Numbered from the stretch's first letter, positions 6,435-30,561 are shown. The stretch is 44,821 nucleotides of DNA from Candidatus Aminicenantes bacterium (GCA_017610325.1 JAFCCF010000010.1:1-44821); one strand, 5' to 3'. Numbers and translations are program-made. The notes: generated by a model from the sequence alone, not told the origin.

Positions 6435-6462
6435 GTTCACTTTTGTTTATAAATGTTCACTT
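6435..6462 (-). promoter_or_regulatory. Palindromic TATA box (TTTATAAA, 6446-6453) bracketed by two direct GTTCACTT repeats. Candidate promoter/operator of the AbiE-like pair.
   Basis: GTTCACTT occurs at 6435-6442 and 6455-6462, with 20-bp spacing. The TATA centre lies about 30 nt upstream of the ATG at 6420, consistent with a leaderless or short-leader archaeal mRNA. Confidence 0.4.
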
Positions 6463-6745: not shown

Positions 6746-9616
6746 GTGAAAAATAAAGAAAGGCACCTGTATTACATAGCATTATTTGTATCGCTTTTGG
6801 TAGTTTTTACACCATTGTCAAGTTTCTATGTGTATGCGACTACAACCACAGCATCAACATCTTCTTCGACAAGCTCAACAACCACAAGCACTACAACAAC
6901 TACAACATCAACAACTACTACTACTACTACAACCACAACAGCCTCAACTACAACTACTTCAACCACCACCACAACCCTTGATACAGAACCACCCTCAATT
7001 GGAACAATCCTCAAGATAACAAAGAATGGGGAAGATGTACAGTATATTGGCCCAAATAGCATCAGTGGTGTTGAAATCACTGTTGAGATTACAGAGCCAA
7101 CAAACCCAACTGTGTACTTTGACCTGTCTGCTGTTGGCGGCTCATCAAGTGTTCCTGCCAGAGTTTGTACAAAGTCAGGCACTGTTTGGAAATGCTCGCT
7201 GTTAGATGTTACATTAATGTCACCTACAGGCCAGATTTCAATTGATGTTTCAGCTTCTGATACAGCTGGCAACACTGCAACTAGCACTGTTACCAAAACC
7301 ATCCAGCTTGACAACCTTGGTCCAGATGTCACGTTTATAGGGACTGATAAGCTAGAGAACAGCATCAGCTATGCAAAGACAGCAAAGAACACCCTGGTAG
7401 TCAGGTTATCTGAGACTGGAGCAGGTATTAATGACAATAACATCTTCCTTGACCTTACACAATTTAATGGCATGTACAGTGTTCAGGCAGACAACTGTAC
7501 ACAGGGAGCAGTGTGGGCATGCTATTGGTATAATGTAAATGCATATGGAAGAAATTCAGGAGACAGGCTGAAGATAATTGTCCTGCCAACATCTACAGAT
7601 GATGTTGGAAACCCAGCTTCTGGCTTAAGTGAGGCAGAGATTGTGCTTGATAAGGAACCTCCAAGGCTCCTTAACATAACAATAACCTCAGTTGGCAGCC
7701 TGGGTGAAACAGAATACCACCAGTCAGGAGACCTGCTGAAGATTGAGGCAAATATATCAGACAATGAGTCAAGTGTTACAGCAGTTGCGGATTTATCAAA
7801 CTTGTTTATGTCAGGGCATGATGCAGAGTATGCAACCTGCACTGCATATGGCTCAAACAGTTATACATGCCAGTGGACAACTGATGCAATAAAAACAGGC
7901 TATTACAAGACCATCATTAACTTTAATCTCAGTGACTTTGTTGGCAATGAACTCCTCACAACAGAGAGTATTGAGGTGTTTGAGACAAGTGAAGAAATAC
8001 CCAACAACTTTGTTCTTATTGTTGACGAAGATGAGATGCTGCCTGAGAATGGAGTTAGCAGGCTGACCATGAGCCTGATTGGCAATTATCTCATATCAGT
8101 TCCATTCTATGTCAGCGGCTCAAATGAGGTACTTAGATTAACAGTTGATGAGTGCAAGATTGAGAATGATACTGGTCTTTATACAACATATTTCCAAAAC
8201 CAGCTGAATCCAGACCTGGCAAGACCTGCAACACAGTCAGGCAGGTGGAACAGGGTAGAGTTTTACTTTGGTTATAACGGCGCAAGGTTTTCCTCACCGC
8301 AGATTAATGGCTTGGATGATTTCCGTGTTACATGCAACTTGAATATTTATCAGAAACAGGGTAATGTGGTTTATCCAATTCCTGAGATTGAAAAGTTTGA
8401 GTTTGAGATTGACTTGCGGGATTCTGCTTTAGGCGGACCTCCTGGAGAGGTTGTAGCTGACAAAATACAGCAGACAAAGGATAACTGGCTTACAGAGAGC
8501 AAATGGATAACTGATATTTACAAGTTCCTTGACTGGGCAGAGTTTATCTGCAGGACAGGCAAGAGCCTGGTGATGATGTGGCAGCAGTTCCTTGTGCTTG
8601 AGAATGTTGGCTATGCATTGATGAAAAGCCCTAACACCGCAATGCAGGCAATTGGTAAACCAATTTTCCAGGCGGGGTGTCATGCTTATGAAGGTCTTGG
8701 TGGGATATTCTGGACTGTGTGGTTTGGAGCTGACAAGAGGGCGAAGGGTGCTTCTAAGAGATGCAGTGTTGTATCTGCAGATAACTACATCAAACCACAG
8801 CCTTTGCCTTCCCAGCCAACAACAATTGCAGAGGCACTTAAAAAACCTGAAGGAAAATTTAACATGAGATGGATTTGCGGCTGGGCAACATGTGAATATG
8901 GGTTGCTAGAGCTTAGCGAGTACACTGGCGGTAATGTGATTAATAACATCCTAAGCGGTGTTGATGTTGGTGAGGAAGAGGACCTGAATCAATTCCTAAG
9001 ACAACGCCTGCACATACACCTTGATGATTCATTTAATGCCCGCAATAGCATATTGTTCAGTGCTGCAAGCATGTGCCTGCCAGGTGTGTTCTATAACCTG
9101 AACAAGTACAGGCAGATTAATTGTAAATATATCTCGTGCTTAGAAAATGTCACAACTGCAGGCGGTGACTTTAGTGTGTGTGATGAAGCAAAGAGCCAGG
9201 CATGGTGCCTTAGCTTTTGGGGCGAGGTGTTTGAGGTAATTGGCCCAGCGCGAGTGTTAGGTGTGCTGAGCCAACAGATTAGAGGCATATTTGTAAACTT
9301 TATTCCAGTCACATTAGATAATATATTCAAGAGTGCTGTGTGCGAGAAAACAGACCAAAAGAACTGGGCATATATTTGGTTCTGTGATGTACCTAGTGTC
9401 ATATATTCAGCAATTGACACCTATGGCAGGGCAGCTGGAATTGGGGCTGTGTTTTCAATAGATAAGATGTTCAGCAAGCCAGATGTTGAGGATGTGTGCG
9501 CACAGGTGTTTCCTAAGAACGAGACAAGTGGGGATGATTCAAGCACACCAACCACAACAAATAAGGGCGGTTCATCAACAATAACATTTGGCCCAGATAC
9601 AACAACCACAACATGA
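6746..9616 (+). CDS. 956-aa secreted surface protein with a signal peptide, a 46-aa Ser/Thr stalk, three Ig-like repeats, a Cys-rich C-terminal domain and a Thr tail.
   Basis: A GTG start is preceded by AGGTG 5 nt upstream and TTTAAATATA at 6691-6700. The signal peptide ends in VYA. Repeats run from [EG]PP... to D[TD]AGN/DDVGN/DFVGN. The segment SAASMCLPGVFYNLNKYRQINCKYISC aligns with SASCVCLPAFEGYLKHYKNIADATKQC of the 1873-aa protein. Confidence 0.8.
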   Translation: MKNKERHLYYIALFVSLLVVFTPLSSFYVYATTTTASTSSSTSSTTTSTTTTTTSTTTTTTTTTTASTTTTSTTTTTLDTEPPSIGTILKITKNGEDVQYIGPNSISGVEITVEITEPTNPTVYFDLSAVGGSSSVPARVCTKSGTVWKCSLLDVTLMSPTGQISIDVSASDTAGNTATSTVTKTIQLDNLGPDVTFIGTDKLENSISYAKTAKNTLVVRLSETGAGINDNNIFLDLTQFNGMYSVQADNCTQGAVWACYWYNVNAYGRNSGDRLKIIVLPTSTDDVGNPASGLSEAEIVLDKEPPRLLNITITSVGSLGETEYHQSGDLLKIEANISDNESSVTAVADLSNLFMSGHDAEYATCTAYGSNSYTCQWTTDAIKTGYYKTIINFNLSDFVGNELLTTESIEVFETSEEIPNNFVLIVDEDEMLPENGVSRLTMSLIGNYLISVPFYVSGSNEVLRLTVDECKIENDTGLYTTYFQNQLNPDLARPATQSGRWNRVEFYFGYNGARFSSPQINGLDDFRVTCNLNIYQKQGNVVYPIPEIEKFEFEIDLRDSALGGPPGEVVADKIQQTKDNWLTESKWITDIYKFLDWAEFICRTGKSLVMMWQQFLVLENVGYALMKSPNTAMQAIGKPIFQAGCHAYEGLGGIFWTVWFGADKRAKGASKRCSVVSADNYIKPQPLPSQPTTIAEALKKPEGKFNMRWICGWATCEYGLLELSEYTGGNVINNILSGVDVGEEEDLNQFLRQRLHIHLDDSFNARNSILFSAASMCLPGVFYNLNKYRQINCKYISCLENVTTAGGDFSVCDEAKSQAWCLSFWGEVFEVIGPARVLGVLSQQIRGIFVNFIPVTLDNIFKSAVCEKTDQKNWAYIWFCDVPSVIYSAIDTYGRAAGIGAVFSIDKMFSKPDVEDVCAQVFPKNETSGDDSSTPTTTNKGGSSTITFGPDTTTTT
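6839..6976 (+). repeat. Low-complexity ACN/TCN codon tract encoding a 46-residue Ser/Thr stalk.
   Basis: Read directly: TTTTASTSSSTSSTTTSTTTTTTSTTTTTTTTTTASTTTTSTTTTT, immediately after the predicted signal-peptide cleavage site. Confidence 0.9.
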
Positions 9617-10269
9617 AAATGGCAGGAGAAAATTACTATAATCAGCCAAATTATTATGGCGGAAGGTATGAGGCGCCAGTTGAGCCACCGCACCCACACA
9701 AAAAGTTCAAGCTGATACTTATCATAATCATCTTGCTTATACTTATAACTGCAGTTGTGCTGTATTTCCTTACCTCACCTGAAGACCCAGGCAGCAGGCC
9801 GCGCACAACCACAACAACAGCTGCAAGCACAGTCACAACAACCATGCAGGATATTGTATCAGACGGGCTTGAGATAAGGAACATGCTCTTTGCAGAAAGC
9901 ATCTTTGATGATTACCAGTATGTCACAAGGCAGAGCAACAAGTTTAGGAGAGGAGAGAGTGTCATAATCTTTTTTGAGGTTGCTGGTACAAGCAATAAGA
10001 TGAATATTTACGGCACATATGATGTTAATCTCAGGGAAAGGGTTGAGCTGAGGGACCCGAACGGCCAGAGAATACCTGAGCTAACATACCTGATAGATGA
10101 CAGTGTGCTGCACACATCAAAATCAAAGAACTATATCAAACCATTTGAGTATTTTTTCAACCTGCTGCAGAGCGACCCGCTGGGAACATATATGCAGACA
10201 ATCATAATCGAGGACAAGAACACAGGCAAAATCGCATCAAAGTCAATCACATTCGAGGTAGTTGAATGA
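9613..10269 (+). CDS. Single-pass (type II-like) membrane protein, 218 aa, with a poly-Thr stalk and an extracellular beta-rich domain.
   Basis: ATGA overlap with the upstream gene. The TM helix is KLILIIIILLILITAVVLYFL, followed by RPRTTTTTAASTVTTT. Confidence 0.7.
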   Translation: MKMAGENYYNQPNYYGGRYEAPVEPPHPHKKFKLILIIIILLILITAVVLYFLTSPEDPGSRPRTTTTTAASTVTTTMQDIVSDGLEIRNMLFAESIFDDYQYVTRQSNKFRRGESVIIFFEVAGTSNKMNIYGTYDVNLRERVELRDPNGQRIPELTYLIDDSVLHTSKSKNYIKPFEYFFNLLQSDPLGTYMQTIIIEDKNTGKIASKSITFEVVE

Positions 10270-12362
10270 GAAAAGTAATTTATTGCACTATGTTACTTAT
10301 TATCCTTATATTTGTCCCTATTGTGGCTGCAGAAAAAGCCACTGTTGTGGTGGAGATACAAGACTGTAATAAAATCGGTTTTGATACTAAAATAAAGATT
10401 AGACCTAGAAACGCTTATACAGCAAGTACTGGCTCCTGCACAATAGAAAAATCCAAAGAATCTACATGTACTTGTTATATTGATACCATTGATAAAGGTG
10501 TGGATTATGTAGTTCGCGCATATGTGGATAGTATCTACGTGGACGCGCGTCCTTTTAAAGCGTTTGGAGCAAGTAAAGTTACGTTTCAAGCAGGTGGGTG
10601 GAAGATTGTAGAATGTACCAAAGGTCAAAAAAAGTGCGAAAACGGTTTGCTATGCAAGTGTATAGAAGAGGGTAACCGCATTAAATGGGATTGTAATGCA
10701 TGTGAGGATTATAAAATCTGCCTATCTGGTCAAAATAAATGCAAAAGGCCAGATTGTGATGGGGGGGAGAGCGGAACAACAAAATGTATGGATGGCTTAG
10801 AATGTGCCTGTCTTGGTCCGTTGAACTATTTGTTTTTTGGCCTAATTCCAATACCTGTTCCTAGAGATTATGACTGGTACTGTAAACCTTGCGACTCAAC
10901 AAAAGAATGCAATACAGCTTCTGGAAGATGTGAGATAATCCAAACCCCTGTTGCAGCTGAACAAACATCTGCAACAGAAAAAGAACAATCACCACAACCA
11001 ACAGCAACCTGCAAACCAATTAAGTATGAGGGCGAAAAGAATAAAAAATGCACCCAGAAATGCACCTGCGAAGATGCCCTGTCTGGCAAGCAGTGTGAGG
11101 AAGCTATTCAGAAGATTTTATCAGGTTACAAAATCGTGCAAGTAAATATAGAATCTGCCACAGCAGAGAAAGATAATGTAGAAGCAAAGGACTGCCAGGT
11201 TGATGAGGAAACCAAGGCAGAGCAAGAAGCAAAAGAAGAGGCAAAGCCATTTGTTGATATGATCGTTGATGAGAAATGCAAGAAGCCAGAAGGCCCAACT
11301 AACCCTAGAGACCTGTACAAACTTGTGGGTGAGGCAGAAGCATACTGTGATGTGTATATTGTAATAGGACCCTTTACTTCAGCTACGTATCAAATAATTG
11401 CAGTATGCAAAGAGCAGGTCAGGGAAAAATGTTCCAAAAAGCTGGGTGTTGACTTGGAAATTAAACTTCTCACATGCGACGAAACATGCGATGCACCAAA
11501 GTGCCACTGCCCATCTGAATGCCCGGTGGTTGAAGATAGTGGGGCAAAAGGTACAGTAAGATGGGACCAGGCTCAGTCATGGCATATTACTCAAGGCTGG
11601 AACTGCAGGTATGAGCAAAGAACTGATAAAGCTGGCCAGGACTGCAGCGGTAATTTTCGCGATGGAATCTGTCCAAGATTCTGTTTCTTCTTTAATGATA
11701 TTGACTGTCGCAGCGAGAAGACAGCAGGATACTTCCTCGGAGATATGATTAACAAGTTCATCCAAAAGCAACAGTGGTACATGGACTTCATGCAGTGGGT
11801 TGAGGGCTGGTCAAAGTGGATTGATCCGCAGCAGTGGGCAAAGAGCTGGTGCAACCCAGCTAACCGGGAAGGAGACCTCCTTATCAGCCCAGCAGTTTAC
11901 ACAGATGATGGAGAACCGCTTGCATGGTATGGCGGCGAAATCCAGATATATAATTACACAAGCACAGACACAGTAAGCAGGTATATCTACCTCATAACTT
12001 GGGGCATAGCAAGCCTGGATGTTGATGTGGAATACAAAATCTCACTAATGAAATCCATTGACAGCAGTGCAGTAAAGGCATTTCCAGGAAGAAAAGACTG
12101 GTTTGAACTGGATGCAGGAGAGTCTCACCAGGGCAAGGACACTGCAAAGACATTTTTCCTTAAAGATGTTTACCAATATGTGTGCCTTGAGTTTAATGAG
12201 AGTGTTGAAGGCTCAGCAAGGCACTGCAGAGAGTTTGCAGCAGCAGGAGAGTACAGAGCAACAGGAGACCCTGCAGTTCCTGAAGGCGCAGCTTCAATCG
12301 GGGGCTCAACAGACCCTGCAAATGATAATACAATAAACTGTGAACTAACCAATACATGCTAA
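10266..12362 (+). CDS. 698-aa secreted Cys-rich protein (EGF-like Cys spacing) with a C-terminal W-C...YIYxITW domain.
   Basis: ATGA overlap with the upstream gene. The signal peptide is MRKVIYCTMLLIILIFVPIVAA. Cys residues are numerous. The C-terminal domain is shared with the first CDS and probably with the 1873-aa protein. Confidence 0.75.
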   Translation: MRKVIYCTMLLIILIFVPIVAAEKATVVVEIQDCNKIGFDTKIKIRPRNAYTASTGSCTIEKSKESTCTCYIDTIDKGVDYVVRAYVDSIYVDARPFKAFGASKVTFQAGGWKIVECTKGQKKCENGLLCKCIEEGNRIKWDCNACEDYKICLSGQNKCKRPDCDGGESGTTKCMDGLECACLGPLNYLFFGLIPIPVPRDYDWYCKPCDSTKECNTASGRCEIIQTPVAAEQTSATEKEQSPQPTATCKPIKYEGEKNKKCTQKCTCEDALSGKQCEEAIQKILSGYKIVQVNIESATAEKDNVEAKDCQVDEETKAEQEAKEEAKPFVDMIVDEKCKKPEGPTNPRDLYKLVGEAEAYCDVYIVIGPFTSATYQIIAVCKEQVREKCSKKLGVDLEIKLLTCDETCDAPKCHCPSECPVVEDSGAKGTVRWDQAQSWHITQGWNCRYEQRTDKAGQDCSGNFRDGICPRFCFFFNDIDCRSEKTAGYFLGDMINKFIQKQQWYMDFMQWVEGWSKWIDPQQWAKSWCNPANREGDLLISPAVYTDDGEPLAWYGGEIQIYNYTSTDTVSRYIYLITWGIASLDVDVEYKISLMKSIDSSAVKAFPGRKDWFELDAGESHQGKDTAKTFFLKDVYQYVCLEFNESVEGSARHCREFAAAGEYRATGDPAVPEGAASIGGSTDPANDNTINCELTNTC

Positions 12363-12384
12363 CAAAACAAAAAAAGAGGTGAAG

Positions 12385-14640
12385 ATGAGAAGCAGAAAAA
12401 GCCAAGTAACCTTATATATAATAATAGGTATTTTGCTTGTCATATTCATAACCCTCTTAATATTCTTAGTAAGGGAGAAGAAGCTGCCGAGCCAGCCACC
12501 AGAGATTATCACATTATCTGATAATCTCAATACAGTCAACAACTTTGTTAGGGAGTGTGTCAGACACACCACAATACAGGGCCTTAACCTGCTTGGAAAA
12601 AATGGTGGCTACATAAACCCGTCAAATCTTAATGCAGAATTCTCGCCAGTAGCATATGAATCAGATGTGCTGATATACCAGCCAGATTTCATACCATACT
12701 GGCATTACATAGACAAATCCAATAGCTTCAACAGCTTCAGGCCAAGGCTTTACAAGCAGTCAGAGGGAGATAACAGTATCCAGGAACAACTTAATAATTA
12801 TGTTGAGCATAATCTGAAAGCATGCACAGCTGGGTTTGAAGCATTCCCTGACTTTGACATATCTGAAGGTGATATAAAAGTAGATTCTGAGATAAGAAGC
12901 CAGGAAATTGTTGTGAATGTTATTTATCCGCTTAGGGTTGTTTCAAAATCAAATCAGAGCGCAACAGAGCTCAAGTCATTCAGCAAGTCAGTGGATGTTA
13001 ACCTGATGCAGATTTATGAGTTTGCAACAGAGATAACAAATGCAGAGAAAAAATACACTTTCTTTGAAACAGTCACTATGAATCTCATAAGCGTGTATGC
13101 TGCAATTGACAGTGAGTCACTGCCGCCAACTTCAAGCCTGCTGCTTGGCAGGGACAAGACAATTTGGGTCAGGTCAGAGATTGAGCAAACCATAAAATAT
13201 GATGTGCTTGACTTTATCAGATTAATCCAGCTGCAGAATGCCCTGAACTATAACCCCTTGATAATCAGCCCAGCAGAGCCAGACTATGAACTTAAGCAGG
13301 GCCTGTACAACTCATTCAATTTCCAGCTTGACAGCCACAAGCAGTATAACCTCACTGTCGAATTTATGTACCCGCAGTCACCAATATTCCTCAGCATAGA
13401 TGACAGTGAAATTATCATGCCCGATGACAGGATACCATCAAATTTCTTTACTGACATGATTGGCCTGCAGATTCAGGATTATACATTTGAGTATGACCTT
13501 GCATATCCAATTATTGTTAAGATAAAAGATCCAAAAGCATTTAATTACCAGAGCTATGAGTTCCAGTTTGCGCTTGAAGCAAACATCAGGGACAACACTC
13601 CAATAAACAGCAGCATGGTGCTTACAGCACCTGTAAGACCTCCAAGAAAGATAGATATCAATGAACCTGGGCAGTTAGTGCTTGAACCTCTGATTGTGAC
13701 TGCCAAGGACAAGGTAACTGGCCAGCTATTGAGTGATGTTGATATATATTATAAGTGCGGGCAAAAGGCGTATATTGGCAGGACAGAAAGCGATGGAACA
13801 ATCTTCACTTCTTTTCCATACTGCTTGCTTGGAGGAAAAATAATATACTTAAAGCAGGGCTATCTTGGCTCTGCAATAAGCTACAATAATAATGAACAAT
13901 CAACTCCAAAAGAATTAACAGTTGAGCTCTGGCCAAAGCAGGGCATTGACTTTGAAATCAAGAAAAGGACGCAGCAGAACATTGACAGCCTGGACGTGAG
14001 CAAGACCGGACCACTGCCGCCAGCAGAGAGAAGGCAGCTGGAACTTGAGCAGGCAACCATCATCCCTGCACATCAAAAAATTATCATGACAATCACCCGA
14101 GTAAAGGAAGATGATAATGAAGATACTGTTCCAGTTCCAAGTTTTATCATCCTGCATCCAAATGCAAAGTCTGCAGATGAGATAGAATCAATGAGGCAGG
14201 TTATTGAGGACCAGTACAACATTGGCCAGATTACTGCTGAGCAGAGAAGCGAGGCACTGCAGGCACTGAATGAGTTAGAGAATGTTGAGTTTGGGGATAT
14301 TGATGAGCAGAACACAATTGAGCTTGTGCCAGGAGATTATATCATTGAAAGCTATCTCATGGATTACAGCAGCATAACAATACCCGAGAAGACTGAAACA
14401 GTGGGCACCTGGCCATTTCAAAAAGGAGTCATATACCCTGAGCAGAAGTTTGCAGTGTGGCAAGCTGGCGGCTCAAACCATAATATGACAATAACTGCAA
14501 ACCAGCTATATTCAGCAGACCAGGTAACACTGTATGTGTTTGACCTCGGGCTTCCGAGCACATGGGATGAGCTTGTAAACCTTAAGTCAGTTGATGATTA
14601 CAGTGAATATAATTATCTGTTAGAACCATCATTCACATGA
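12385..14640 (+). CDS. About 751-aa surface protein with a class III (prepilin-like) signal peptide. Paralog 2 of 3.
   Basis: The ATG at 12385 follows a GAGGTG site; the ORF track's GTG at 12379 lies inside that site. The N-terminus is MRSRKSQVTLYIIIGILLV. Family blocks are FVRECVRHTTIQGLNLLGKNGGY, IPYWHYI, LNNYVEHNLKACTAGF and FQFALEANIRDN. A CarboxypepD_reg-like segment reads AKDKVTGQLLSDVDIYYKCGQKAYIGRTESDGT. Confidence 0.8.
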   Translation: MRSRKSQVTLYIIIGILLVIFITLLIFLVREKKLPSQPPEIITLSDNLNTVNNFVRECVRHTTIQGLNLLGKNGGYINPSNLNAEFSPVAYESDVLIYQPDFIPYWHYIDKSNSFNSFRPRLYKQSEGDNSIQEQLNNYVEHNLKACTAGFEAFPDFDISEGDIKVDSEIRSQEIVVNVIYPLRVVSKSNQSATELKSFSKSVDVNLMQIYEFATEITNAEKKYTFFETVTMNLISVYAAIDSESLPPTSSLLLGRDKTIWVRSEIEQTIKYDVLDFIRLIQLQNALNYNPLIISPAEPDYELKQGLYNSFNFQLDSHKQYNLTVEFMYPQSPIFLSIDDSEIIMPDDRIPSNFFTDMIGLQIQDYTFEYDLAYPIIVKIKDPKAFNYQSYEFQFALEANIRDNTPINSSMVLTAPVRPPRKIDINEPGQLVLEPLIVTAKDKVTGQLLSDVDIYYKCGQKAYIGRTESDGTIFTSFPYCLLGGKIIYLKQGYLGSAISYNNNEQSTPKELTVELWPKQGIDFEIKKRTQQNIDSLDVSKTGPLPPAERRQLELEQATIIPAHQKIIMTITRVKEDDNEDTVPVPSFIILHPNAKSADEIESMRQVIEDQYNIGQITAEQRSEALQALNELENVEFGDIDEQNTIELVPGDYIIESYLMDYSSITIPEKTETVGTWPFQKGVIYPEQKFAVWQAGGSNHNMTITANQLYSADQVTLYVFDLGLPSTWDELVNLKSVDDYSEYNYLLEPSFT

Positions 14641-16520
14641 AAAGAAAAGCACAGATATCAAACTTTGTAATGATTGGCATCATACTAGTGCTAGCTACTG
14701 GCTTGTTCCTGTTCCTTAAGTACAAGGTATTGCTGTCTGGGCCGCAGGAAATAGTGCCGCCAGAATATGAACCTATAAAGGACTTTGTTGAGTTATGCAT
14801 GAAAGAGCAGGCAAAAGAGGCAATCATAATGCTTGGCCAGCAGGGTGGCTTTGTTGAGCTGCCAAATAGGATTGGGAACAATCCATTTGCCTATATTGAG
14901 TTTATTAAAGGTGGTCTGTTCAGGGTGCCGTTGTGGTATTACATGGGCGAGTCACGAATACCTTCCCCTGGTACAATAGAAAACCAGATTGAGATATACA
15001 TACAACAGAACCTTGAAACCTGCCTGCAGAATTTTACCAATTTCCAGAATGATTTCATAATAACAAACACAACATTAGATGTCAAGGCAGCATTAGCTGA
15101 CAAGGATGTCATGGTAAGTGCCTTTTTTCCATTAACTGTAACAAGCAGAACTGACAACCAGGTCGGAAAAATCACATTGTTCAGTACAAAGCTTGATGTA
15201 AAACTGAGAAAGCTGTATGAGCTTGCAGAAGCTATTATGGAAGAGGAAAATAGGGGCATGTTCATAGAAAACACAACCATTGACCTTATGGTACTTGAGC
15301 CAAATATTCCTACCACTGACCTGCTCTTAAAATGCGGAAGACTAACCTGGTACAAGAGCGATGTTATTGATGAACTAAAAGAATCCCTTTTCTATAACCT
15401 GCCAAGGATAAGGATAGCTAACACAGACTATGAACCATTCAGAGACGAGGAACAGTATGGCAAAAGTAAATTTGTTTGGGATGTCACAAAAAAGAAGTAT
15501 CCTGATGTAAGTGTTGGCCTGAGATATGAGCAGGAATGGCCCTTAACAATGAGAGTAAGACCAAGTGACGGCAATGTCATGAAGTCCAACTATGGCAAGG
15601 GCATGAGCGCTTACCTGCATTTCCTGTGCATCAACCTGTTCCACTTTACTTATGATGTTACATACCCTGTTGAAGTTACATTAAGAGAGCCAACTTCCTT
15701 CGGTGGTGAAGGCTATACCTTCAGGTTTGGCTTCCCAGTATACATCGACCATAATGAAGGCATGAGGGATGACTTTGCACGCACTGACTTTGGCATACCT
15801 GATATAGGGGGCGATTTCTGCGAGGAAACAACAGAACGAACCTTTTTTGTCAGGGCAGTTGACAGTAGGACTAGCCTGGACCTTAAGGATGTTAATATTT
15901 CCCTGGAATGTATCAGGCACTTGTGTAACCTTGGCAAGACAAGCTATGATGGCCTGTATTACAGGCTGCAGACACCCCTGCTTAAAGTGTGCCCAATTGG
16001 AATGATTACTGCAGAACATCCCGATTATCTCCCCGCAGAGCAGATTGCTGATTATAGGACTGCTGACCAGGAGATTGTGCTCCAGATGAGGCCGCTCAAG
16101 GAGTTTGAGTACACTGTTGTCAAGCATTACTCATCTGATCCAAGGTGGCCAATCGGGCTTGGCAAGAATCAATATGCTGTGATTGCAATAGAGGATGCTG
16201 AAAATGACTTTGCTGTGTTTGACAACTATCCCAAGCACTATGCAATATTTGAAAAGAACATGACACTTATCAAGGATACAGAAGATTACAAACTGGAAAT
16301 AATGCTTATGGAGGATGACAAATATATTGGAGGCTACAAAGGCATCTGGAATACCTCATATGAGGAGCTGGCAGATAACACACACCTCACCTTCCATGTA
16401 ATTGAATATTCCCCTCAGCCAACTACAGACGAGGAGACTGGGGCAATGATTGCATACCTGGAAGACCAAGCAAGCTATCCAGAAAGCACAAGACCTAGCT
16501 TTAGCATAGGATTTGAATGA
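14637..16520 (+). CDS. 627-aa surface protein with a class III (prepilin-like) signal peptide. Paralog 3 of 3.
   Basis: ATGA overlap with the upstream gene. The N-terminus is MKRKAQISNFVMIGIILVLATGLFLF. Family blocks are FVELCMKEQAKEAIIMLGQQGGF, VPLWYYM, IEIYIQQNLETCLQNF and FRFGFPVYIDHNE. Confidence 0.8.
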   Translation: MKRKAQISNFVMIGIILVLATGLFLFLKYKVLLSGPQEIVPPEYEPIKDFVELCMKEQAKEAIIMLGQQGGFVELPNRIGNNPFAYIEFIKGGLFRVPLWYYMGESRIPSPGTIENQIEIYIQQNLETCLQNFTNFQNDFIITNTTLDVKAALADKDVMVSAFFPLTVTSRTDNQVGKITLFSTKLDVKLRKLYELAEAIMEEENRGMFIENTTIDLMVLEPNIPTTDLLLKCGRLTWYKSDVIDELKESLFYNLPRIRIANTDYEPFRDEEQYGKSKFVWDVTKKKYPDVSVGLRYEQEWPLTMRVRPSDGNVMKSNYGKGMSAYLHFLCINLFHFTYDVTYPVEVTLREPTSFGGEGYTFRFGFPVYIDHNEGMRDDFARTDFGIPDIGGDFCEETTERTFFVRAVDSRTSLDLKDVNISLECIRHLCNLGKTSYDGLYYRLQTPLLKVCPIGMITAEHPDYLPAEQIADYRTADQEIVLQMRPLKEFEYTVVKHYSSDPRWPIGLGKNQYAVIAIEDAENDFAVFDNYPKHYAIFEKNMTLIKDTEDYKLEIMLMEDDKYIGGYKGIWNTSYEELADNTHLTFHVIEYSPQPTTDEETGAMIAYLEDQASYPESTRPSFSIGFE

Positions 16521-19500
16521 TGAAGAGAGCGACATTTGTAATATTTGTAATGATTTTGTTAGTTGCTGGAATAGCTACAGCAACAACAACTACTTCCACT
16601 ACTACTACAACCACCACCACAATTGACATCAGCGGCCCTCTCTTCATCAACACAGTTATTCCTGAGTTTTACAATGATGTTGAACTGGATATTGAGCTTC
16701 TCACAAAACCATCTGCTGAGGTATTTATCTATGTCAATGGCGAGCTCAAAAGACACAGTGTCATGGATGCAACAGGATTTTACAGGTTTGCTGATGTCAC
16801 ACTTAACCAGAACCTTTTCGAGAACAAAATCAATATTGAGGCAAAGGATTCAACTGGTTCTGTGTCCCAGGATTTCAGTGTAAAGCTTGACCTTATACCA
16901 CCTACAGTTACTCTCAAGAACCTTACAGATTTCACTGACCAGGCTACGCTGACTGTGCAGGGTACAGTTAGTGAGGATGTAAATGCAATTTTCTACCTGA
17001 GCTATGAAAGCGGGGAGAAATTCATTGAGCATAAGACAGACATTGCAGCTGGCTCGTTTTCAGAGACCGTCAACTTCAACAAGGGGGAGGGCAATTATGA
17101 GCTTGAGATAAAATTCAATGACTCTGGAGGGAACATTGTAGCAAAAACAGTAGATATTGCAATGGATGCAAGCCCGCCTGCAATAAACCTTAACCCTGCA
17201 CTTAACCAATTATCACCTTCATATGTTGATACGGTGAGGATTAAGGGCACCACAGACCCGAATGCACTGATTATTGTGTTTGTCAATGAGAAAACCTCAA
17301 CACATAAGAGCTATAGCCTAGGTGTTGTATCGATACTTGAAAAGCTTGGCAGGCTTGTTGAGGGTAAGACAGAATTACACACAACAGCTGACGGCGAAGG
17401 TAACTTTATGATTGATGTTCAGCTCACCCAGGACATTGCGGTGAGGAGCGAGGACTCTATTACCATAACACGCCCAGGTGGTACTGGGTATGTTGAGGAG
17501 ATCAGGTATTCAACAGGCAACCAGTGGCGCAACTCCATCAAGATTGTTGCAATTGACAAGTATGAGAGGGAATCACAGCCAATCACAGGCGAGATTATGT
17601 ATGCATACTGCGGTGCAGGCGGTTACTGGGGCGTCACTATTGAGAACCCAACACCAAGTATAATCCAGCCAATCCATCTGTTAAGAGGCATTGCAAGCCT
17701 TGGCTTTAACTACAGGCTTGAATGGAATGGGCCAGGCGATGCAAGCAAGGCTCGCATCAATGGCAGGCCAAGAATTGCGAAGTACACAAAGCTCAGCGGT
17801 GAGGAGTCCAAGGAATATGACAATGACCTGATTCCGTCTGGAGATATCTTCTCCCAGTTCAGCCAGCAGGCAAAAGTTGGCAGTGTAACTATTAACCTGA
17901 TGAAATGGCAGAAAACTGAGCAGGAGATTGAGGACATGGGGAAACTCAAGTTTTTCCTTGAGATGGAAATTCCCTACACCTTTGACTATTACGGTGCTAT
18001 TGGCACTGGCAGGCAGAGGAAGTGTATACCAATACATATCCAGGTTGACAAGAACATCATGGCGCACATTCCAGATGGCATGCTCAAGTTTGGTGTCAAG
18101 GCATTGAATGCAACCATTGATGTTATTGATACAGTGTTGGATGTTGTGGAAGATGTAAGGAAATTTACATTTGTAGGCTGCATTGCAATGCAATATGGCT
18201 ATAACCAGTGGATGTGGATAAAGGAAAAGCTTGCATGCGTATCATATGCTACCAACTTATTCACTCCACCTGTGCCAGAGCATGGAGAAACAATTGAACT
18301 GGCATGCAGCAAGGAAGGTGACAAGCAGGAAGATTGCGAGAAATGCTGGGAAGCAAAGGTCAGCAGGAGAAAAGCAGAAAAAACAATGCAGTGGGTGTGC
18401 GACCGTGTTTATTGCCCAGCTGCGCCAAGTGTCGAATATTATGCGCAAGAGCAGAAATCAAACCAGAACAAAATTTACTATTATTTTGAAGATGATGAGC
18501 CAGTTGTGTACCAGGGCAGCCAGTGCTATGATTACGATGCACTGAGGCCATCTTATTCTATACCTGCCAGCTCTGAAAACATTGATTCCTGCGGCAAAGA
18601 ATACAAGTATGAATGGGATCCAGCATGCATCTCAGTTGATGAGTACAGGAAGTCATTCAAGGAAACCTATGACACAAACTTCTTCAACAGCTTTGTGGAC
18701 TTTACAAGCGACATCTGCAGCAAGGGCGAGAAAGACCAATATGTAAGAACATTTGAGGCAAATGTGCTTGGTAAAAAGCATCCTTACCTTGTTATCAAGC
18801 TAAAAGGTGATACATCAGTAAATGACCCAACAGCTAACATGCATCTTAAGAGGTCAGGCTCTGAAAGGGTTGACTTCCAGTATGAGTTTGACAAGGGTGA
18901 GGGAGGAGATGGTATCAGGAACTATGGCCAGGACCGCGAGGTAAAGATTAAGCTGGTTAGCTTTACTTACCTTTACAAAAAAGGCTATAGGCTGTTTAAC
19001 AGAAGCGAGAGAACTAATGGTGTTGCACCAAAGGTTCATGAATGGAGAGAAGCATTTATCTCAGAGTCAGGTGTTATGGCTGATCTCGATAGGGCAGTTA
19101 ACGAGATTATGGGACTTCCGGATTATAATTATTATGACAAGTATTACCAGTGCAATGATGGCATTGACAATGACGATGATGGCCTTATAGACTTTACAAC
19201 AAAGGATGGTGACCCTGATTGTACTTCAGTCTATGATGATACTGAAAGCGAAGATAGGCCTCCATCAGGCGACCTTGCCAAGGATCCGCAGGAGGTTGGC
19301 AAATGGCTTGCACAGAAGTATTGTATACCCCCTGAAGCTGGGGAATCAAAGAAACAAGACGATGCTAATAAAGAAACTCTAGAAGCACAGAGCGGGTGTG
19401 ACGCGTACAGTTCTAAGTTCCCCAACAAGGGCAATGACAAAGATTTGCTTACCTGCAAGACCCGGGCAGAGAACCATTGTGATGTAATCCATGCCCAGAC

Positions 19501-22138
19501 TTCTGAGACTGAGAAAGAAAAAGACCTACAAAGCAAACAAGAACAAGATGAGGGCCAGCTCAAGGAAAAGCTTATTGCAGAAATATATAATCTTATCCAG
19601 CAGGATGTATTTGATCAGAGATACCAAGACAAATGGGTTGTTGATCCAACCTCTGGTCTGCTAAGAAGCGCATCGTGCGTGTGCCTGCCTGCATTTGAAG
19701 GTTATCTAAAACATTACAAAAACATTGCAGATGCAACCAAGCAGTGCTTTAACCAGATTTTATTAACAGGAGATACAACAGCCCAGTTCTGCAAAGCGGT
19801 CATGACGCAGTATGTCTGCGACATTATACATTCCTCACTTAAGTGCGTTGGTAAGATGTTTGGAGAAAACCTTCTGAACGCTGGCACTAACAAGGCTCAC
19901 GAAGGAGGGGGCATTGGCAGTTTCCTTGGTGCATTGTTTGGTGCAAGCGAGTCTGTTGGTAAGTCAGTAGAGAATAGGTATGGTGCAACATCAATGTTTA
20001 ATGTGATGTACCGCGAGCAGGGTTTGTGGAACTCTGCCTGTTTGGCAGCATGGGGTGGTGACTGGAATATTGAGCTTGAAAATTTGTTTGTCCGCGCCCA
20101 GGAACGGCTGCCATTAAAGAGCTTGGTATATGTGTTCCCGTCAACAAGAAGATATTTTTCAACTAACATTATAACTGGCCTGCCAACATATGTATATCAC
20201 GTAGGGTTTGGAGCGCTTGCTGGCGCAAATGTGCAGAATCTAAGGGTACAGCTGGTGTGTTCAACAGACACAACATGCGACCCAGGAGATAATTACCAGA
20301 ATGGCATATGCGACTGTTATTACACCAGGAATGACTGCCCAACTGGCGGCTGTGTACACTCACTCAGGGTGCCTGGCAGTTTAAAAAATGGGGAAACATA
20401 TTCATATGATTTCTATGAAAAGGTAGAAACCTCAAAGGTCAGGTTTGATAAGGTCAGGGTCACATATGAGTATATAGACAATAAAAATGAGAGGCAGCAG
20501 GTCAAAGAAGAATTCCCAATAAGCCTGATAGGCGGCAGCCCGCCTGCAGAGTGTACCTTTGATGTTACAAGCCTCATGTTCAGTTGCGGCATAGACACCG
20601 GGGTAAAAGGCACAGCATACTTTAACGGCATACCACGGTTTATTTCCCAAACGCCAACATTTATGATCGGCGATATGATAAAACTGCAGGGTACACTAAC
20701 AAAGATGAGTCCAAAAGACAATCCAAACTCGCCAATGTACCTTGTTGCAAAGGTCACTGACCAGGACGGAGTCATTATAGGGGGCAGTCCAAAATACTGG
20801 CACCTGCAGAGGGATGGCTCATACACCCTGGACCAAGATTCTTTGTTTACTATGGGTGTGCCAGGATTATCAATCCAAGAAAATCATTTTAGCTCAGTAG
20901 GCGGACAGTCAAGAGTCAAGGAAGGCACGAGGCGGCAAGGTGTCTATGCAACAATCGATGGCCAGCTCAGGCAAAATATAGCAATAGAATTAGGGGGTAC
21001 AGTGAATAATAGTGACTGGGATATTAAGTTTAACATCATAACACAGGGCGACGTATACATCAATGATCCTTGCGCTGAAGCTGATTATAAGGATTGTATA
21101 CTCAAAAAAGGTGGACCTAACTCCTTTGAGATTGATGGAGTCACAATTATACTTCAGGGAATTCCACTGGCATCAGATCAAAGCGGGCGATACTCAGATA
21201 CAATCAACCTCCAGCCTCAGTCAGGTATTGAGCGTAACTGGAAGGTTGAGATTTCTCTGCATTATGCAAAAGAGGATGACCCTGCAAACTATGATCCAAC
21301 ACCTATAGATGCTAACGGCGAGCAGCGCTATTCAATTCCATTTAAGGTAATAAATGCATATTCTCCAACAGCAGGCAAGTGCAGCAAATCATCTGAACAA
21401 AACTCGTTGAAAAATGATAACCCTACATGCAGGTGTGGTGTGACCTCTGAGAACAACTGCCCAACTAAGACTAACAAGTATTGTTATGGTGGTGTGTGCA
21501 GGAAGTTCCCTGCCTGTGATATAGATGCCACAAACCCGATTAAAGACTCATGCGTTTGCGATCCTTCAACAGGTGCAGGAAAAACAGATTGTAAGGTTGA
21601 CACAGACCCTAACAAGAAATCCTACTGCTACAAGGATGATGATGCAGAAACCCCAATCTGCCATGACGAAGCAAAGACACCCACACCCATAACTCCTTCA
21701 GCACCAACAACACCTGCTATTAATCTTGTGAGTATCACAGGTCTTGTGAAAAATTGCCGCAGTGCTTGCAAACTTAAACCAGATGCAGCCAATAAGTTAA
21801 AAGAAGCGCAGACAATAGCAGAGCGGGAAGGCTATAATCTCTGTGTTTTTGATTCATATAGGACAGAAGCTAGACAAAAGGAGCTCTATGACCTGCTTAA
21901 TCCGCAAAATATGCCAGTGTGCGGTCCAGACTTTGCCAATTGCCCTCATGTTAATGGTGGTGCAGTGGATATGAGGCTTTGTGATAATGACGGTAAATAC
22001 CTTGAAAGCAACGATAATTATAAAAAGCTGCAGAGAATAATGATTGAAGCAGGGTGGGCGTGGTTTAGAAGAGAACTACAGCATTTCGAATATGGAACAA
22101 CTAGTTGGAGAGGGGCAACAAATAATGAGTTCGGCTGA
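16517..22138 (+). CDS. 1873-aa giant secreted multidomain protein. Domains in order: poly-Thr stalk, Ig-like repeats, Cys-rich domains, a D-x-D Ca-binding-like motif, EGF-like Cys cluster, Pro/Thr linker and a C-terminal M15/LAS peptidase-like domain.
   Basis: ATGA-type overlap with the upstream gene. The N-terminus is MMKRATFVIFVMILLVAGIATATTTTSTTTTTTTT. Repeats end in DSTGS/DSGGN. It contains CNDGIDNDDDGLIDFTTKDGDPDC. The C-terminal motifs are SYRTEARQKELY, H1811-x6-D1818 (HVNGGAVD) and H1856 (ELQHFEY). Confidence 0.85.
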   Translation: MMKRATFVIFVMILLVAGIATATTTTSTTTTTTTTIDISGPLFINTVIPEFYNDVELDIELLTKPSAEVFIYVNGELKRHSVMDATGFYRFADVTLNQNLFENKINIEAKDSTGSVSQDFSVKLDLIPPTVTLKNLTDFTDQATLTVQGTVSEDVNAIFYLSYESGEKFIEHKTDIAAGSFSETVNFNKGEGNYELEIKFNDSGGNIVAKTVDIAMDASPPAINLNPALNQLSPSYVDTVRIKGTTDPNALIIVFVNEKTSTHKSYSLGVVSILEKLGRLVEGKTELHTTADGEGNFMIDVQLTQDIAVRSEDSITITRPGGTGYVEEIRYSTGNQWRNSIKIVAIDKYERESQPITGEIMYAYCGAGGYWGVTIENPTPSIIQPIHLLRGIASLGFNYRLEWNGPGDASKARINGRPRIAKYTKLSGEESKEYDNDLIPSGDIFSQFSQQAKVGSVTINLMKWQKTEQEIEDMGKLKFFLEMEIPYTFDYYGAIGTGRQRKCIPIHIQVDKNIMAHIPDGMLKFGVKALNATIDVIDTVLDVVEDVRKFTFVGCIAMQYGYNQWMWIKEKLACVSYATNLFTPPVPEHGETIELACSKEGDKQEDCEKCWEAKVSRRKAEKTMQWVCDRVYCPAAPSVEYYAQEQKSNQNKIYYYFEDDEPVVYQGSQCYDYDALRPSYSIPASSENIDSCGKEYKYEWDPACISVDEYRKSFKETYDTNFFNSFVDFTSDICSKGEKDQYVRTFEANVLGKKHPYLVIKLKGDTSVNDPTANMHLKRSGSERVDFQYEFDKGEGGDGIRNYGQDREVKIKLVSFTYLYKKGYRLFNRSERTNGVAPKVHEWREAFISESGVMADLDRAVNEIMGLPDYNYYDKYYQCNDGIDNDDDGLIDFTTKDGDPDCTSVYDDTESEDRPPSGDLAKDPQEVGKWLAQKYCIPPEAGESKKQDDANKETLEAQSGCDAYSSKFPNKGNDKDLLTCKTRAENHCDVIHAQTSETEKEKDLQSKQEQDEGQLKEKLIAEIYNLIQQDVFDQRYQDKWVVDPTSGLLRSASCVCLPAFEGYLKHYKNIADATKQCFNQILLTGDTTAQFCKAVMTQYVCDIIHSSLKCVGKMFGENLLNAGTNKAHEGGGIGSFLGALFGASESVGKSVENRYGATSMFNVMYREQGLWNSACLAAWGGDWNIELENLFVRAQERLPLKSLVYVFPSTRRYFSTNIITGLPTYVYHVGFGALAGANVQNLRVQLVCSTDTTCDPGDNYQNGICDCYYTRNDCPTGGCVHSLRVPGSLKNGETYSYDFYEKVETSKVRFDKVRVTYEYIDNKNERQQVKEEFPISLIGGSPPAECTFDVTSLMFSCGIDTGVKGTAYFNGIPRFISQTPTFMIGDMIKLQGTLTKMSPKDNPNSPMYLVAKVTDQDGVIIGGSPKYWHLQRDGSYTLDQDSLFTMGVPGLSIQENHFSSVGGQSRVKEGTRRQGVYATIDGQLRQNIAIELGGTVNNSDWDIKFNIITQGDVYINDPCAEADYKDCILKKGGPNSFEIDGVTIILQGIPLASDQSGRYSDTINLQPQSGIERNWKVEISLHYAKEDDPANYDPTPIDANGEQRYSIPFKVINAYSPTAGKCSKSSEQNSLKNDNPTCRCGVTSENNCPTKTNKYCYGGVCRKFPACDIDATNPIKDSCVCDPSTGAGKTDCKVDTDPNKKSYCYKDDDAETPICHDEAKTPTPITPSAPTTPAINLVSITGLVKNCRSACKLKPDAANKLKEAQTIAEREGYNLCVFDSYRTEARQKELYDLLNPQNMPVCGPDFANCPHVNGGAVDMRLCDNDGKYLESNDNYKKLQRIMIEAGWAWFRRELQHFEYGTTSWRGATNNEFG
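21770..22138 (+). other. Peptidase M15 (VanY / L-Ala-D-Glu peptidase-like, LAS zinc metallopeptidase) domain at the C-terminus of the giant protein.
   Basis: The pattern FDSYRTEARQKELY ... CPHVNGGAVDM ... GWAWFRRELQHFEYG corresponds to the S-x-[YF]-R-[ST]-x-x-x-Q, H-x6-D and terminal-His zinc/catalytic motifs of M15 D,D- and L,D-peptidases. Confidence 0.65.
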
Positions 22139-22152
22139 GCAATTTAATTAAA

Positions 22153-22977
22153 ATGTTTTTCTCAGGTATGATTTCAGAGCTAAATACTTCATTAAGAAGA
22201 TTATATGAGAAGCTTGGCTATATCTTGCTGTGCATGGTTCTTGACCTGCTGTTCTTTTTTGTGTATGGGATTGTATCTTTTTTTGCAATGAGTGTTGTGT
22301 ATAAGCTGATTAATGACCTTTCTGGATATCTCTCTGCATCGCCAGAGCTTGTTGTAAGCCTTGCATCTGACCCATTGTATAAGCAGCAGCTGAACGAGCT
22401 CTTGGTAGTGGTGCTGATTGCCATTGCTTTTACATATGTCATCTACACAATACTGCATGGCATAAACTGGTTCATTGTCAGCAGGAAACTGCTCAACTAT
22501 AAGATTAAGTTCTGGACTTATATTGGAAAATTTGCTGTCACAAGCCTGCTATGCTTTTCATCAATAGCTATTTTGGTTGTTGCTTATCTTAAAATATCAT
22601 TTACATCTTTATTTGAGTCCCAGCAAATTGCGTGGATTATATTCCTTGTGCTGCTGTTTATTGTGTTGTGGTTTGGGTTTATAACACATGCACTTGCGCC
22701 AAGCAACAAGCTCAAGGACATCTATAAGAAAACATTCAGAATTGGAATCAAGAAAGCGCATTATGTGCTGCTGATATATGCTGTGCTGGTCATCATTGGA
22801 ATTATTATCAATTTTATCCTTAGCTTGTTTGGAAAACTCAGCCCAGGACTTTTGTATGCTGGCGGAATCCTGCTGTTCCTGCCATTCATGACATTCTTCA
22901 GAACACACCTGACTCAGACCATTAACAAACTAGATAAAAACAATAAGAAGAAAAATAAAACAAAAAAGAGAAGATAA
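22153..22977 (+). CDS. Polytopic membrane protein (274 aa) with a Lys-rich C-terminus. Paralog of 4249..5082.
   Basis: It has about 6 hydrophobic segments and starts 14 nt after the giant gene. It shares sequence blocks with the 4249 gene. Confidence 0.75.
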   Translation: MFFSGMISELNTSLRRLYEKLGYILLCMVLDLLFFFVYGIVSFFAMSVVYKLINDLSGYLSASPELVVSLASDPLYKQQLNELLVVVLIAIAFTYVIYTILHGINWFIVSRKLLNYKIKFWTYIGKFAVTSLLCFSSIAILVVAYLKISFTSLFESQQIAWIIFLVLLFIVLWFGFITHALAPSNKLKDIYKKTFRIGIKKAHYVLLIYAVLVIIGIIINFILSLFGKLSPGLLYAGGILLFLPFMTFFRTHLTQTINKLDKNNKKKNKTKKRR

Positions 22978-25881: not shown

Positions 25882-26826
25882 TCAACTATAAACAGTCCTT
25901 GCAATGTAATGGCAGCAGAAGACCATGTCCTTTAGCTTCTCAATTGTTGTTCCTATCCACTCTACCCTTAGATGTGCCTTATGGAAATTTGTGCAGTCCA
26001 TCACAAGCACCTCTCTATTCTCAGATATCTTAAGCGCAAATTCAGTATCATTTGTGTAATATGCCTTCATTGCATCCTTGTACGTGCTAGCCATCCTAAG
26101 GTGTAGCCTCCTTAGTTCCTCAATATCTTTCTTGGAAAGCTTTAGACGATTGTAAAGTTTTACAACCCTCTTGCAATCATCAGCAATCTTTTCGATAAAT
26201 GAAGCAACAGTCTGTACATTCATCAGGTCATATGGCTTGTAGTTCTGGTTGCTGGCTTGGTTCGGATGTTCAAGCAAATATCTTACAGCCCTGTACACCA
26301 AAAAACTCAGCCTGTTAACATCCTCGTCCCTCTCATGGATAATCTGTCTTTTGTCAACCTCAAATGCATCTGAACATTCTTGTATCATTGCTCTTGTGAT
26401 TATATCCATTCTCCTTATCAGATCCTTGATAGATATATCCTTCATGTTAATGAAGTCCTTTGCAACAATCTTATCTGCAGTCTCCTCAAGCACCTCTAGA
26501 GCCATTACATTATGAATTATGTCCTTTATCTCTCTTGACTTTGTTTCAAGATCCTTGCCTTTTATAATTATCTTGTTAAAGTTCTTGATATAAGCTGGAA
26601 TAATATTTCTCTTAATCCATTTCATGTTCTTATCAGAAATATCAATGGTTATTTGTCTTGTCTCATCCCGGTCTGATTTTTCTCGGGGGTATAGGATTAT
26701 CTTGTCAGGCTTCTCATCAAGATACACCAAGTCTCCCTTGTTAAGTTTATTTTTTGTGACCCAAGCCTTTGGTAAAGAAACAATATAAGAGCTCTTGCCA
26801 AAGTTAATTAACTTTCTGAATTCCAT
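25882..26826 (-). CDS. phoU: Archaeal PhoU-like phosphate uptake regulator with an N-terminal AbrB/SpoVT domain.
   Basis: MEFRKLINFGKSSYIVSLPKAWVTKNKLNKGDLVYL is a typical SpoVT/AbrB swapped-hairpin motif, followed by helical PhoU-like repeats. The ATG at 26826 is preceded by GGGGG with an 8-nt spacer. Confidence 0.7.
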   Translation of the reverse strand: MEFRKLINFGKSSYIVSLPKAWVTKNKLNKGDLVYLDEKPDKIILYPREKSDRDETRQITIDISDKNMKWIKRNIIPAYIKNFNKIIIKGKDLETKSREIKDIIHNVMALEVLEETADKIVAKDFINMKDISIKDLIRRMDIITRAMIQECSDAFEVDKRQIIHERDEDVNRLSFLVYRAVRYLLEHPNQASNQNYKPYDLMNVQTVASFIEKIADDCKRVVKLYNRLKLSKKDIEELRRLHLRMASTYKDAMKAYYTNDTEFALKISENREVLVMDCTNFHKAHLRVEWIGTTIEKLKDMVFCCHYIARTVYS

Positions 26827-26949
26827 GTGACTAACCCCCACCGAATATAATTTAATTAAGCATATGTTTTCTATATGCTATATATGGTATATGGGAAAAT
26901 TATATATATATATAAACCTTTCTATTAAAATATAGGGGGGATTAATAAG

Positions 26950-27339: not shown

Positions 27340-30561
<3,222 letters not shown>

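Follow-up and report, generated by a model that had tools for sequence, protein, structure and literature searches.

A C-terminal M15/LAS zinc peptidase module on a giant exported protein of a probable DPANN archaeon

The last ~138 residues of a giant protein encoded in a 44,821-nucleotide stretch of DNA (GCA_017610325.1, JAFCCF010000010.1:1-44821; hereafter the window, meaning this whole stretch) are confirmed here as a genuine M15/LAS zinc peptidase domain. The protein is read from an open frame of 1873 codons and, judging from its sequence, is Cys-rich and exported. The window is archaeal by its gene content, and its source is probably an uncultured member of the DPANN group. The domain would be extracellular, and we consider with moderate confidence that it most likely cuts bacterial peptidoglycan and so targets bacteria. 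An original prediction made on the same DNA had claimed an M15/LAS domain fused to a giant archaeal surface protein; the identification of the domain and its fusion to a giant exported archaeal protein are both borne out. The relevant features of the gene are the following.

16517..22138, + strand: gene of the giant protein carrying the M15 module; its homologues P0002 and P0003 (46-48% identity) align only as far as C1715, and P0004 is 24% identical
16517..16621, + strand: N-terminal hydrophobic signal or anchor (residues 5-23), then a poly-Thr run (residues 22-35), from the translation and a hydropathy scan
21662..21721, + strand: Pro/Thr-rich linker (residues 1716-1735, HDEAKTPTPITPSAPTTPAI); the orthologues cease to align just before it
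21722..22135, + strand: M15/LAS zinc peptidase module (residues ~1736-1873), recognised through Pfam, NCBIfam, PHROG, AlphaFold, Foldseek and 283 relatives
21860..21862, + strand: codon of R1782 (SxYR motif), the putative transition-state-stabilising Arg, invariant in 90/90 relatives
21920..21943, + strand: C1802 and C1809 (VCGP...NCPH), a putative disulfide pair indicated by column covariation
21947..21970, + strand: H1811-x6-D1818 (PHVNGGAVD), the first two predicted zinc ligands, invariant in 90/90 relatives and aligned with the equivalent His and Asp in Ply500 and VanX
22073..22084, + strand: E1853-L-Q-H1856 (ExxH), the predicted catalytic base and third zinc ligand; E and H are invariant, and Q1855 stands in place of Trp

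Identity, fold and catalytic residues of the domain

Several profile collections recognise the domain. When it is scored in isolation, the Pfam VanY model (PF02557) gives 26.3-27 bits, above the gathering cutoff of 25. The strongest single-model match is to PRK10178, the DdpX-type model of NCBIfam (NF007557), at E=3.3e-15 and over profile positions 29-122 of 188. Its 56.2 bits compare with an equivalog cutoff of 176, and NF033115 yields 15.7 bits against a cutoff of 320, so that the domain falls outside the VanX/DdpX equivalogs. Endolysin families of PHROG match as well, with E-values down to 6e-7, and the best solved relative by sequence (PDB) is the Listeria phage endolysin Ply500 (E=3e-4). 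The likeness to M15, VanY and phage endolysins that had been noticed in the original prediction is thus recovered, and the profile searches proposed with it return a significant M15 match. An exhaustive phmmer search over 1.84 billion cluster representatives retrieved 283 relatives at E<=1e-3, including 34 at E<=1e-10, and the top ten are 38-47% identical to the window domain. All 42 relatives in alignment A2 match PF01427, and a profile of 42 relatives detects LdcB (1.3e-12), VanX (2.8e-12) and Ply500 (7e-11) among solved structures. In a word-indexed database the isolated domain gave no match by homology; a profile search there recovered mainly bacterial DdpX-like proteins, together with only one member of the DPANN-type group described below. 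The start of the domain had been placed at position 21770, that is, at residue 1752. This coincides with the beginning of the VanY match (1752-1849), but the relatives indicate that the module begins earlier, at about residue 1736 (nucleotide ~21722).

Structural modelling, which had likewise been suggested as a check, gave a confident LAS fold, the type in which helices pack against a central antiparallel sheet. The AlphaFold model of the domain, built with 42 relatives, reaches a pLDDT of 91.2 and a pTM of 0.84, and the top 33 Foldseek matches in the PDB all have this fold. The LAS matches include Ply500, LysB4, VanX, VanXYc, LdcB, VanY, ChiX, the T5 endolysin and Hedgehog, and viral fold matches in BFVD are phage M15 endolysins. 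Ply500 is the best of all (E=1e-7, TM-score 0.64). Together with LysB4 it represents the M15C L-Ala-D-Glu endopeptidases (PDB 2vo9 and 6akv), which as the best structural matches span TM-scores of 0.64-0.65 at 24-27% identity. On the evidence of the model, the proximity to endolysin domains is compatible with action on a polymeric wall. Both endolysins are, like the window domain, compact LAS domains of ~130-150 residues with an H-x6-D...H zinc site. Their likeness to it in sequence is weak, however, as the E-value for Ply500 indicates, and the window domain has the ExxH found in VanX, VanY and LdcB. It further differs from them by features of its own clade, namely the putative CGP...CPH disulfide and the WHFEYGT-type C-terminus. 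With VanX/DdpX (M15D) and VanY/LdcB (M15B) it shares the full R / H-x6-D / E-x-x-H set, and these provide its best sequence matches at the profile level. In contrast to VanX and DdpX, which are soluble and cytoplasmic or periplasmic, the window domain would be extracellular and tethered; it scores 56 bits where the VanX/DdpX model demands 176, and is ~70 residues shorter than VanX.

Conservation was counted over 90 aligned relatives of full coverage. All 90 share R1782, H1811, D1818, E1853 and H1856, and the near-invariant Q1787, P1804, G1814, A1816, M1842 and G1846 are also kept in the window domain. The strings singled out in the original prediction are all present, with FDSYRTEARQKELY at 1778-1791, PHVNGGAVDM containing H1811 and D1818, and ELQHFEY containing H1856, and the His/Asp/His signature runs in the order described there. 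The profile of the relatives places the ExxH onto EWWH of VanX and EPWH of YodJ/LdcB. R1782 is presumably equivalent to R71 of VanX, whose catalytic constellation consists of R71, H116, D123, E181 and H184. In the mechanism that we envisage, H1811, D1818 and H1856 would hold the zinc ion, E1853 would serve as general base by activating a water molecule, and R1782 would stabilise the tetrahedral intermediate. The columns of C1802 and C1809 covary: both are Cys in 45 sequences, neither is in 44 and a mismatch occurs once. This suggests a C1802-C1809 disulfide and hence an oxidising, extracellular location, and such a bridge could stiffen the loop just ahead of the first zinc ligand. At position 1855 the window domain alone among the 90 aligned sequences has Gln, Trp being present in 89/90. 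Its codon, CAG at 22079-22081, lies at least two substitutions from TGG, so that a simple sequencing error is unlikely.

Relatives of the module and its probable substrate

We scanned the GTDB representative genomes with an 8-sequence alignment. The best matches come from metagenome-assembled genomes (MAGs) labelled Pacearchaeota, Woesearchaeota, Nanoarchaeia or 'archaeon', with bacteria of the candidate phyla radiation (CPR) among and below them; ordinary bacterial DdpX-like proteins come next, at 25-32% identity. The phylogeny called for by the original prediction assigns the domain to a mostly DPANN/CPR group, which is split from the bacterial DdpX-type sequences in 173 of 200 neighbour-joining bootstraps. 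Within it, the sister relation between the window domain and the archaeal sequence L005 is weak (85/200). This group of C-terminal M15 modules was delineated in the present analysis and corresponds to no curated family. It is marked by the C-terminal position and by the motifs SAYR..Q, (C)xP...(C)PH..G.AVD and E.WHFEYGT, all of which the window domain displays with the single deviation W1855Q. Most of the 89 full-coverage relatives have their module no more than ~12 residues from the C-terminus, and the proteins are mostly of 300-400 residues with an N-terminal hydrophobic segment, some being giants. The module was most likely drawn from a pool of C-terminal M15 modules circulating among DPANN archaea and CPR bacteria. 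A scan of viral contigs found no relative of the M15 module and so offers no direct sign of a phage source.

The company that the module keeps elsewhere is that of known wall hydrolases. Relatives are fused to SLT (P0041, P0110, P0121), to Glucosaminidase (P0010, P0076), and to Amidase_3 and NlpC/P60 (P0076, P0127). The best-scoring genomic match, at 43% identity, is L005 itself (16-6456, + strand), on a contig of an archaeal MAG (isolate SI047_bin70). The encoded protein, whose gene is open at the 5' end, comprises at least 2146 aa, and in it an SLT-like domain (1797-1922) lies directly upstream of the C-terminal M15 module.

Some relatives of the module (P0054, P0063, P0074, P0033 and L010, the last on a contig labelled as CPR, Saccharibacteria) have N-terminal regions that by eye resemble the hairpins of TrbC/VirB2-like pilins of type IV secretion or conjugative systems. 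If this likeness is true, the module may sit on different surface-filament proteins in the two episymbiotic radiations.

A murein-peptide hydrolase directed against bacteria, as originally proposed, is the best-supported reading of the domain because of its grouping with DPANN/CPR sequences, the fusions of its relatives to SLT, glucosaminidase, Amidase_3 and NlpC/P60 domains, the published LysM+Peptidase_M15 proteins of Woesearchaeales (see below) and its intact catalytic residues. The substrate would be the D-amino-acid-containing stem peptides of bacterial peptidoglycan, cut at the surface of the archaeon, and their cleavage might help it to fasten onto bacteria, open them or feed on them, whether as partners, prey or competitors. 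The extracellular location is suggested by the N-terminal signal with its poly-Thr run, by the covarying Cys pair and by the N-terminal hydrophobic segments on six products of the operon to which the gene belongs. Display of the domain at the tip of the protein, as pictured in the original prediction, is conjecture.

Several points weigh against this reading. The VanY match passes only marginally, and through dilution the full-length protein scores 19.5 bits, below the cutoff of 25. Profile scores are about equal for the structures of an LD-carboxypeptidase (LdcB), a DD-dipeptidase (VanX) and an L-Ala-D-Glu endopeptidase (Ply500), and a pure carboxypeptidase trims peptidoglycan and causes no lysis. 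The replacement W1855Q, beside the zinc-binding His, could alter or weaken activity. A Pfam scan of the 1873-aa protein revealed no LysM, PG_binding, SH3 or similar wall-binding domain. Finally, no murein-synthesis gene is visible within the window, but its 44.8 kb are all of the genome that can be seen, and the archaeon may possess an endogenous murein-like polymer.

The DdpX-type model as the strongest single match, the agreement of all A2 relatives with PF01427, the ExxH motif of VanX/VanY/LdcB type and the empty scan for wall-binding domains would also suit a scavenger rather than a weapon. Here the domain would be a DD-/LD-carboxypeptidase or a dipeptidase that trims D-Ala, or cuts free D-Ala-D-Ala or shed muropeptides, and feeds an auxotrophic, small-genome archaeon without lysis; the DdpX of E. 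coli is a starvation-induced scavenging enzyme. We hold this to be unlikely, if still worth serious thought. The score against the DdpX-type model is far under its equivalog cutoff, and at 132 residues, compared with 202 in VanX, the domain is too short to include the VanX-specific inserts that close the VanX pocket round a dipeptide. Its best fold matches are instead endolysin domains with an open cleft, those of Ply500 and LysB4, and the giant surface tether, in combination with the lytic SLT, amidase and NlpC/P60 companions of its relatives, suggests a polymeric wall.

A different question is whether the fold has been repurposed for a substrate other than murein, such as proteins of the archaeon's own envelope, the wall of an archaeal host (pseudomurein or glutaminylglycan) or another D-amino-acid or isopeptide bond. 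The unique Gln at the otherwise Trp-conserved position 1855 is in keeping with this idea, as is the lack of a detectable peptidoglycan-binding domain in the Pfam scan, and a preprint gives archaeal hosts for all DPANN cultivated so far (bioRxiv 10.1101/2023.02.24.529834). Nevertheless, the characterised M15 enzymes among the matches all act on peptidoglycan peptides or on D-Ala-D-Ala, and modules related to this one occur in fusion with classic murein hydrolase domains. To our knowledge, moreover, the peptides of pseudomurein consist of L-amino acids only and are cut by unrelated cysteine endoisopeptidases. Archaeal peptidoglycan hydrolases are also almost absent from pseudomurein producers (Strock et al., PMC12352652). 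We consider a non-murein substrate improbable, and bacterial peptidoglycan remains the substrate that we favour.

The carrier, the lineage-specific fusion and their genomic setting

The body of the giant protein offers few clues. It had been described as containing Ig-like repeats and a Ca-binding-like motif, and matches of this kind do exist, but they are sub-threshold (Big_13, E=0.0085; an acidic double-disulfide repeat, E=0.004) and nothing stronger was found. A PDB profile search with the body gave no match, the AlphaFold model of residues 1000-1873 (4 sequences) is unusable at a pLDDT of 43.6, and the Pfam scan of the 1873-aa protein has no SLT match at E<=1. The Pro/Thr linker that had also been claimed is indeed present, at residues 1716-1735 ahead of the module.

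Among 5.8 billion proteins the giant protein has only three homologues, and thus belongs to a rare family of four members; a metagenome scan for the family returned the already known JGI contig only, and no further member. The M15 module is found in just one of the four, the window copy. P0002 and P0003 end after C1715, their stop codons overlapping the start of the next gene, whereas P0004 continues beyond this position into another extension, which is not an M15 module. No M15 is encoded within 10 kb in the loci of these homologues. In the window, linker and module are in frame and lie exactly between two syntenic genes, synteny being intact on both sides, and the gene of the 274-aa protein begins 14 nt past the stop codon of the giant gene. 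The GC content at third codon positions (GC3) of the linker and module (21662-22138) is 0.33, below that of every same-sized window in the gene body (0.45+/-0.045, minimum 0.36), which hints at a separate, lower-GC origin of the extension. Most likely, the M15 module was added to the carrier in the lineage of the window.

Since the fusion is known from a single contig, it might be asked whether chimeric metagenome assembly joined an M15 segment to the giant gene. Such an assembly ought to have disrupted the gene order. Here the segment is in frame and fits exactly between two genes whose synteny extends to three related contigs; the junction bears a Pro/Thr linker, the 274-aa gene starts 14 nt past the stop, and we regard an artefact as very improbable indeed. 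A real fusion could nevertheless be an inactive or decaying passenger, that is, a recently acquired module without function or one that only binds, like the LAS-fold Hedgehog N-domain. The replacement of Trp at a 99%-conserved position, the restriction of the module to one carrier in four and its atypical GC3 can be cited in favour. Yet the five catalytic and zinc residues, the disulfide pair and the near-invariant positions have all been kept, in an open frame and a confidently folded model, and we find it hard to give this explanation much credence. An active peptidase added to the carrier is the preferred reading.

A Cys-rich module common to the body of the window protein and to P0089/L005 was considered and set aside (E=0.32, not significant). 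Searched with the profile of the giant family, L005, P0089 and the other large relatives tested all stay below significance. Only o956 and P0089 gave a match, short and local.

Seven closely spaced genes, all on the + strand, form an operon in which the giant gene comes sixth.

6746..22977, + strand: conserved seven-gene envelope operon encoding proteins of 956, 218, 698, 753, 627, 1873 and 274 aa; the genes overlap or nearly abut, and are syntenic with those of L001-L003

The order of these genes is conserved on three other metagenome contigs, L001-L003, and none of the seven products has a Pfam or NCBIfam family. By hydropathy, the first six have one N-terminal hydrophobic segment each, and the seventh, the 274-aa protein, has 6-7 transmembrane (TM) segments. 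Several products are very Cys-rich, and some contain poly-Thr runs. The operon may encode a cell-surface apparatus that has not been described before, and is a candidate machine for interaction with a host. One could go further and propose that C-terminal effectors are exchanged at a slot in the giant protein that directly follows its last Cys-rich module; the slot is empty in two relatives, holds a different extension in the third and M15 in the window copy. In function the archaeal apparatus would then parallel the contact-dependent polymorphic effectors of bacteria and serve to break, on contact, through the wall of a host or prey bacterium. We offer this as a speculation, and a rather doubtful one.

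Some further observations concern the proteins around the giant one. Those of 780 aa (1914-4256), 753 aa (12379-14640) and 627 aa (14637-16520), all on the + strand, match each other's L001/L003 orthologues at 23-27% identity and, on this basis, appear to be paralogues. All three begin with a K/R-rich stretch followed by (G/A/S)-Q and a hydrophobic helix, e.g. MKKRGQITLYIIIG. We considered whether these, and the N-termini of small DPANN M15 proteins, might be class III (prepilin-like) signal peptides; the likeness is one seen by eye, to which Pfam and NCBIfam gave no support, and it stands as a visual lead only. Proteins with 6-7 TM segments close two clusters (317 aa, 4129-5082; 274 aa, 22153-22977), so that the system may be present upstream of the operon in a second, incomplete copy. 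Between the clusters of surface proteins, on the - strand (5094-6420), two genes overlap, of which one is AbiEi-antitoxin-like (208 aa, E=5e-10) and the other has a weak NTP_transf_5 nucleotidyltransferase-like match (235 aa); together they look like an AbiE-type toxin-antitoxin pair. A MazE/AbrB-PhoU fusion (25882-26841, - strand) is kept beside the operon in its relatives.

As to the origin of the DNA, the window can be called archaeal because it encodes S3Ae, S6e, L10e, eIF2-gamma, NOG1 and an AMP-phosphorylase-like protein; these ribosomal proteins, eIF2-gamma and NOG1 agree with the archaeal source assumed in the original prediction. A bacterial-type GyrB with an intein is encoded as well. 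Its gene (27340-30561, + strand) specifies 1073 aa, the intein (Intein_splicing, residues 447-869) being located between DNA_gyraseB and Toprim, and the syntenic gyrB of the related contig L002 specifies 644 aa and has no intein. The AMP-phosphorylase-like gene (42256-43743, - strand), with CDC48_N and glycosyl transferase family 3 domains, points to nucleotide salvage. A 495-aa protein (35719-37206, - strand) has a weak match to Dictyostelium-type Cys repeats.

Relation to known systems

The idea is less new than the original prediction assumed. Giant murein-hydrolase proteins of Woesearchaeota and Pacearchaeota, and archaeal peptidoglycan hydrolases at large, have already been published (PMC8204110, PMC12352652, PMC9723730). 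The former are extracellular murein-like lytic transglycosylase proteins grouped as fam00969 (Castelle et al. 2021, PMC8204110), and the same SLT-type genes were reported by Vigneron et al. 2022 (PMC9723730) and in an mBio 2024 study. Like the window protein, the fam00969 giants are very large and exported, belong to archaea with small genomes and carry a bacterial wall hydrolase domain, and both have been proposed to bind or degrade bacterial walls. L005, with at least 2146 aa and both SLT-like and M15 domains, resembles the giants of PMC8204110. The window protein differs from them in that no SLT was found in it, its enzyme is a peptidase and not a glycosidase, and its body is not significantly similar to L005, P0089 or other large relatives tested. 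Nor is the seven-gene envelope operon described in PMC8204110 or PMC9723730.

Modular peptidoglycan hydrolases, defined by Strock et al. as having at least one catalytic and at least one recognised cell-wall-binding Pfam domain, are encoded by ~5% of archaeal genomes and are prominent in Nanoarchaeota (Strock et al. 2025, PMC12352652). Two haloarchaeal M23 peptidoglycan hydrolases kill a bacterium, and a supplementary table of the same study lists Sec-secreted LysM+Peptidase_M15 proteins in Woesearchaeales; M15 examples are not among the enzymes tested experimentally there (PMC12352652). These Woesearchaeales proteins and the window protein have in common that they are secreted, archaeal and equipped with an M15-type catalytic domain. 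The window protein stands outside the class as defined, however, as it shows no recognised wall-binding domain and its carrier is a 1700-residue uncharacterised body in place of LysM or PG_binding repeats.

A conceptual likeness can be drawn with the SPEARE proteins of Nanohaloarchaeota, said to have been described by Hamm et al. in 2019. These are reportedly giant DPANN surface proteins that combine adhesion-type regions with an enzymatic domain, for which an action on the envelope of the partner was proposed. Family and domains are reportedly unrelated to those of the window protein, and the SPEARE host is said to be a haloarchaeon without murein. Our literature search found no paper on the C-terminal M15 module in DPANN or on its fusion to such a carrier. 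The principle, and the domain family in this lineage, are therefore already published, whereas the carrier family and the operon are undescribed.

DPANN of the Woesearchaeota and Pacearchaeota type may live on bacteria rather than on other archaea, and genomes offer few hints on this point, among them wall hydrolases for which the archaeon itself could have no use. The locus described here adds an example of the peptidase type on a new carrier, and so extends the current picture without changing it. Many surface proteins of DPANN and CPR end in the same M15 module, often accompanied by glycosidase or amidase domains. Being small (~138 residues), confidently modelled and easily expressed, it makes substrate, bond specificity and target range directly testable.

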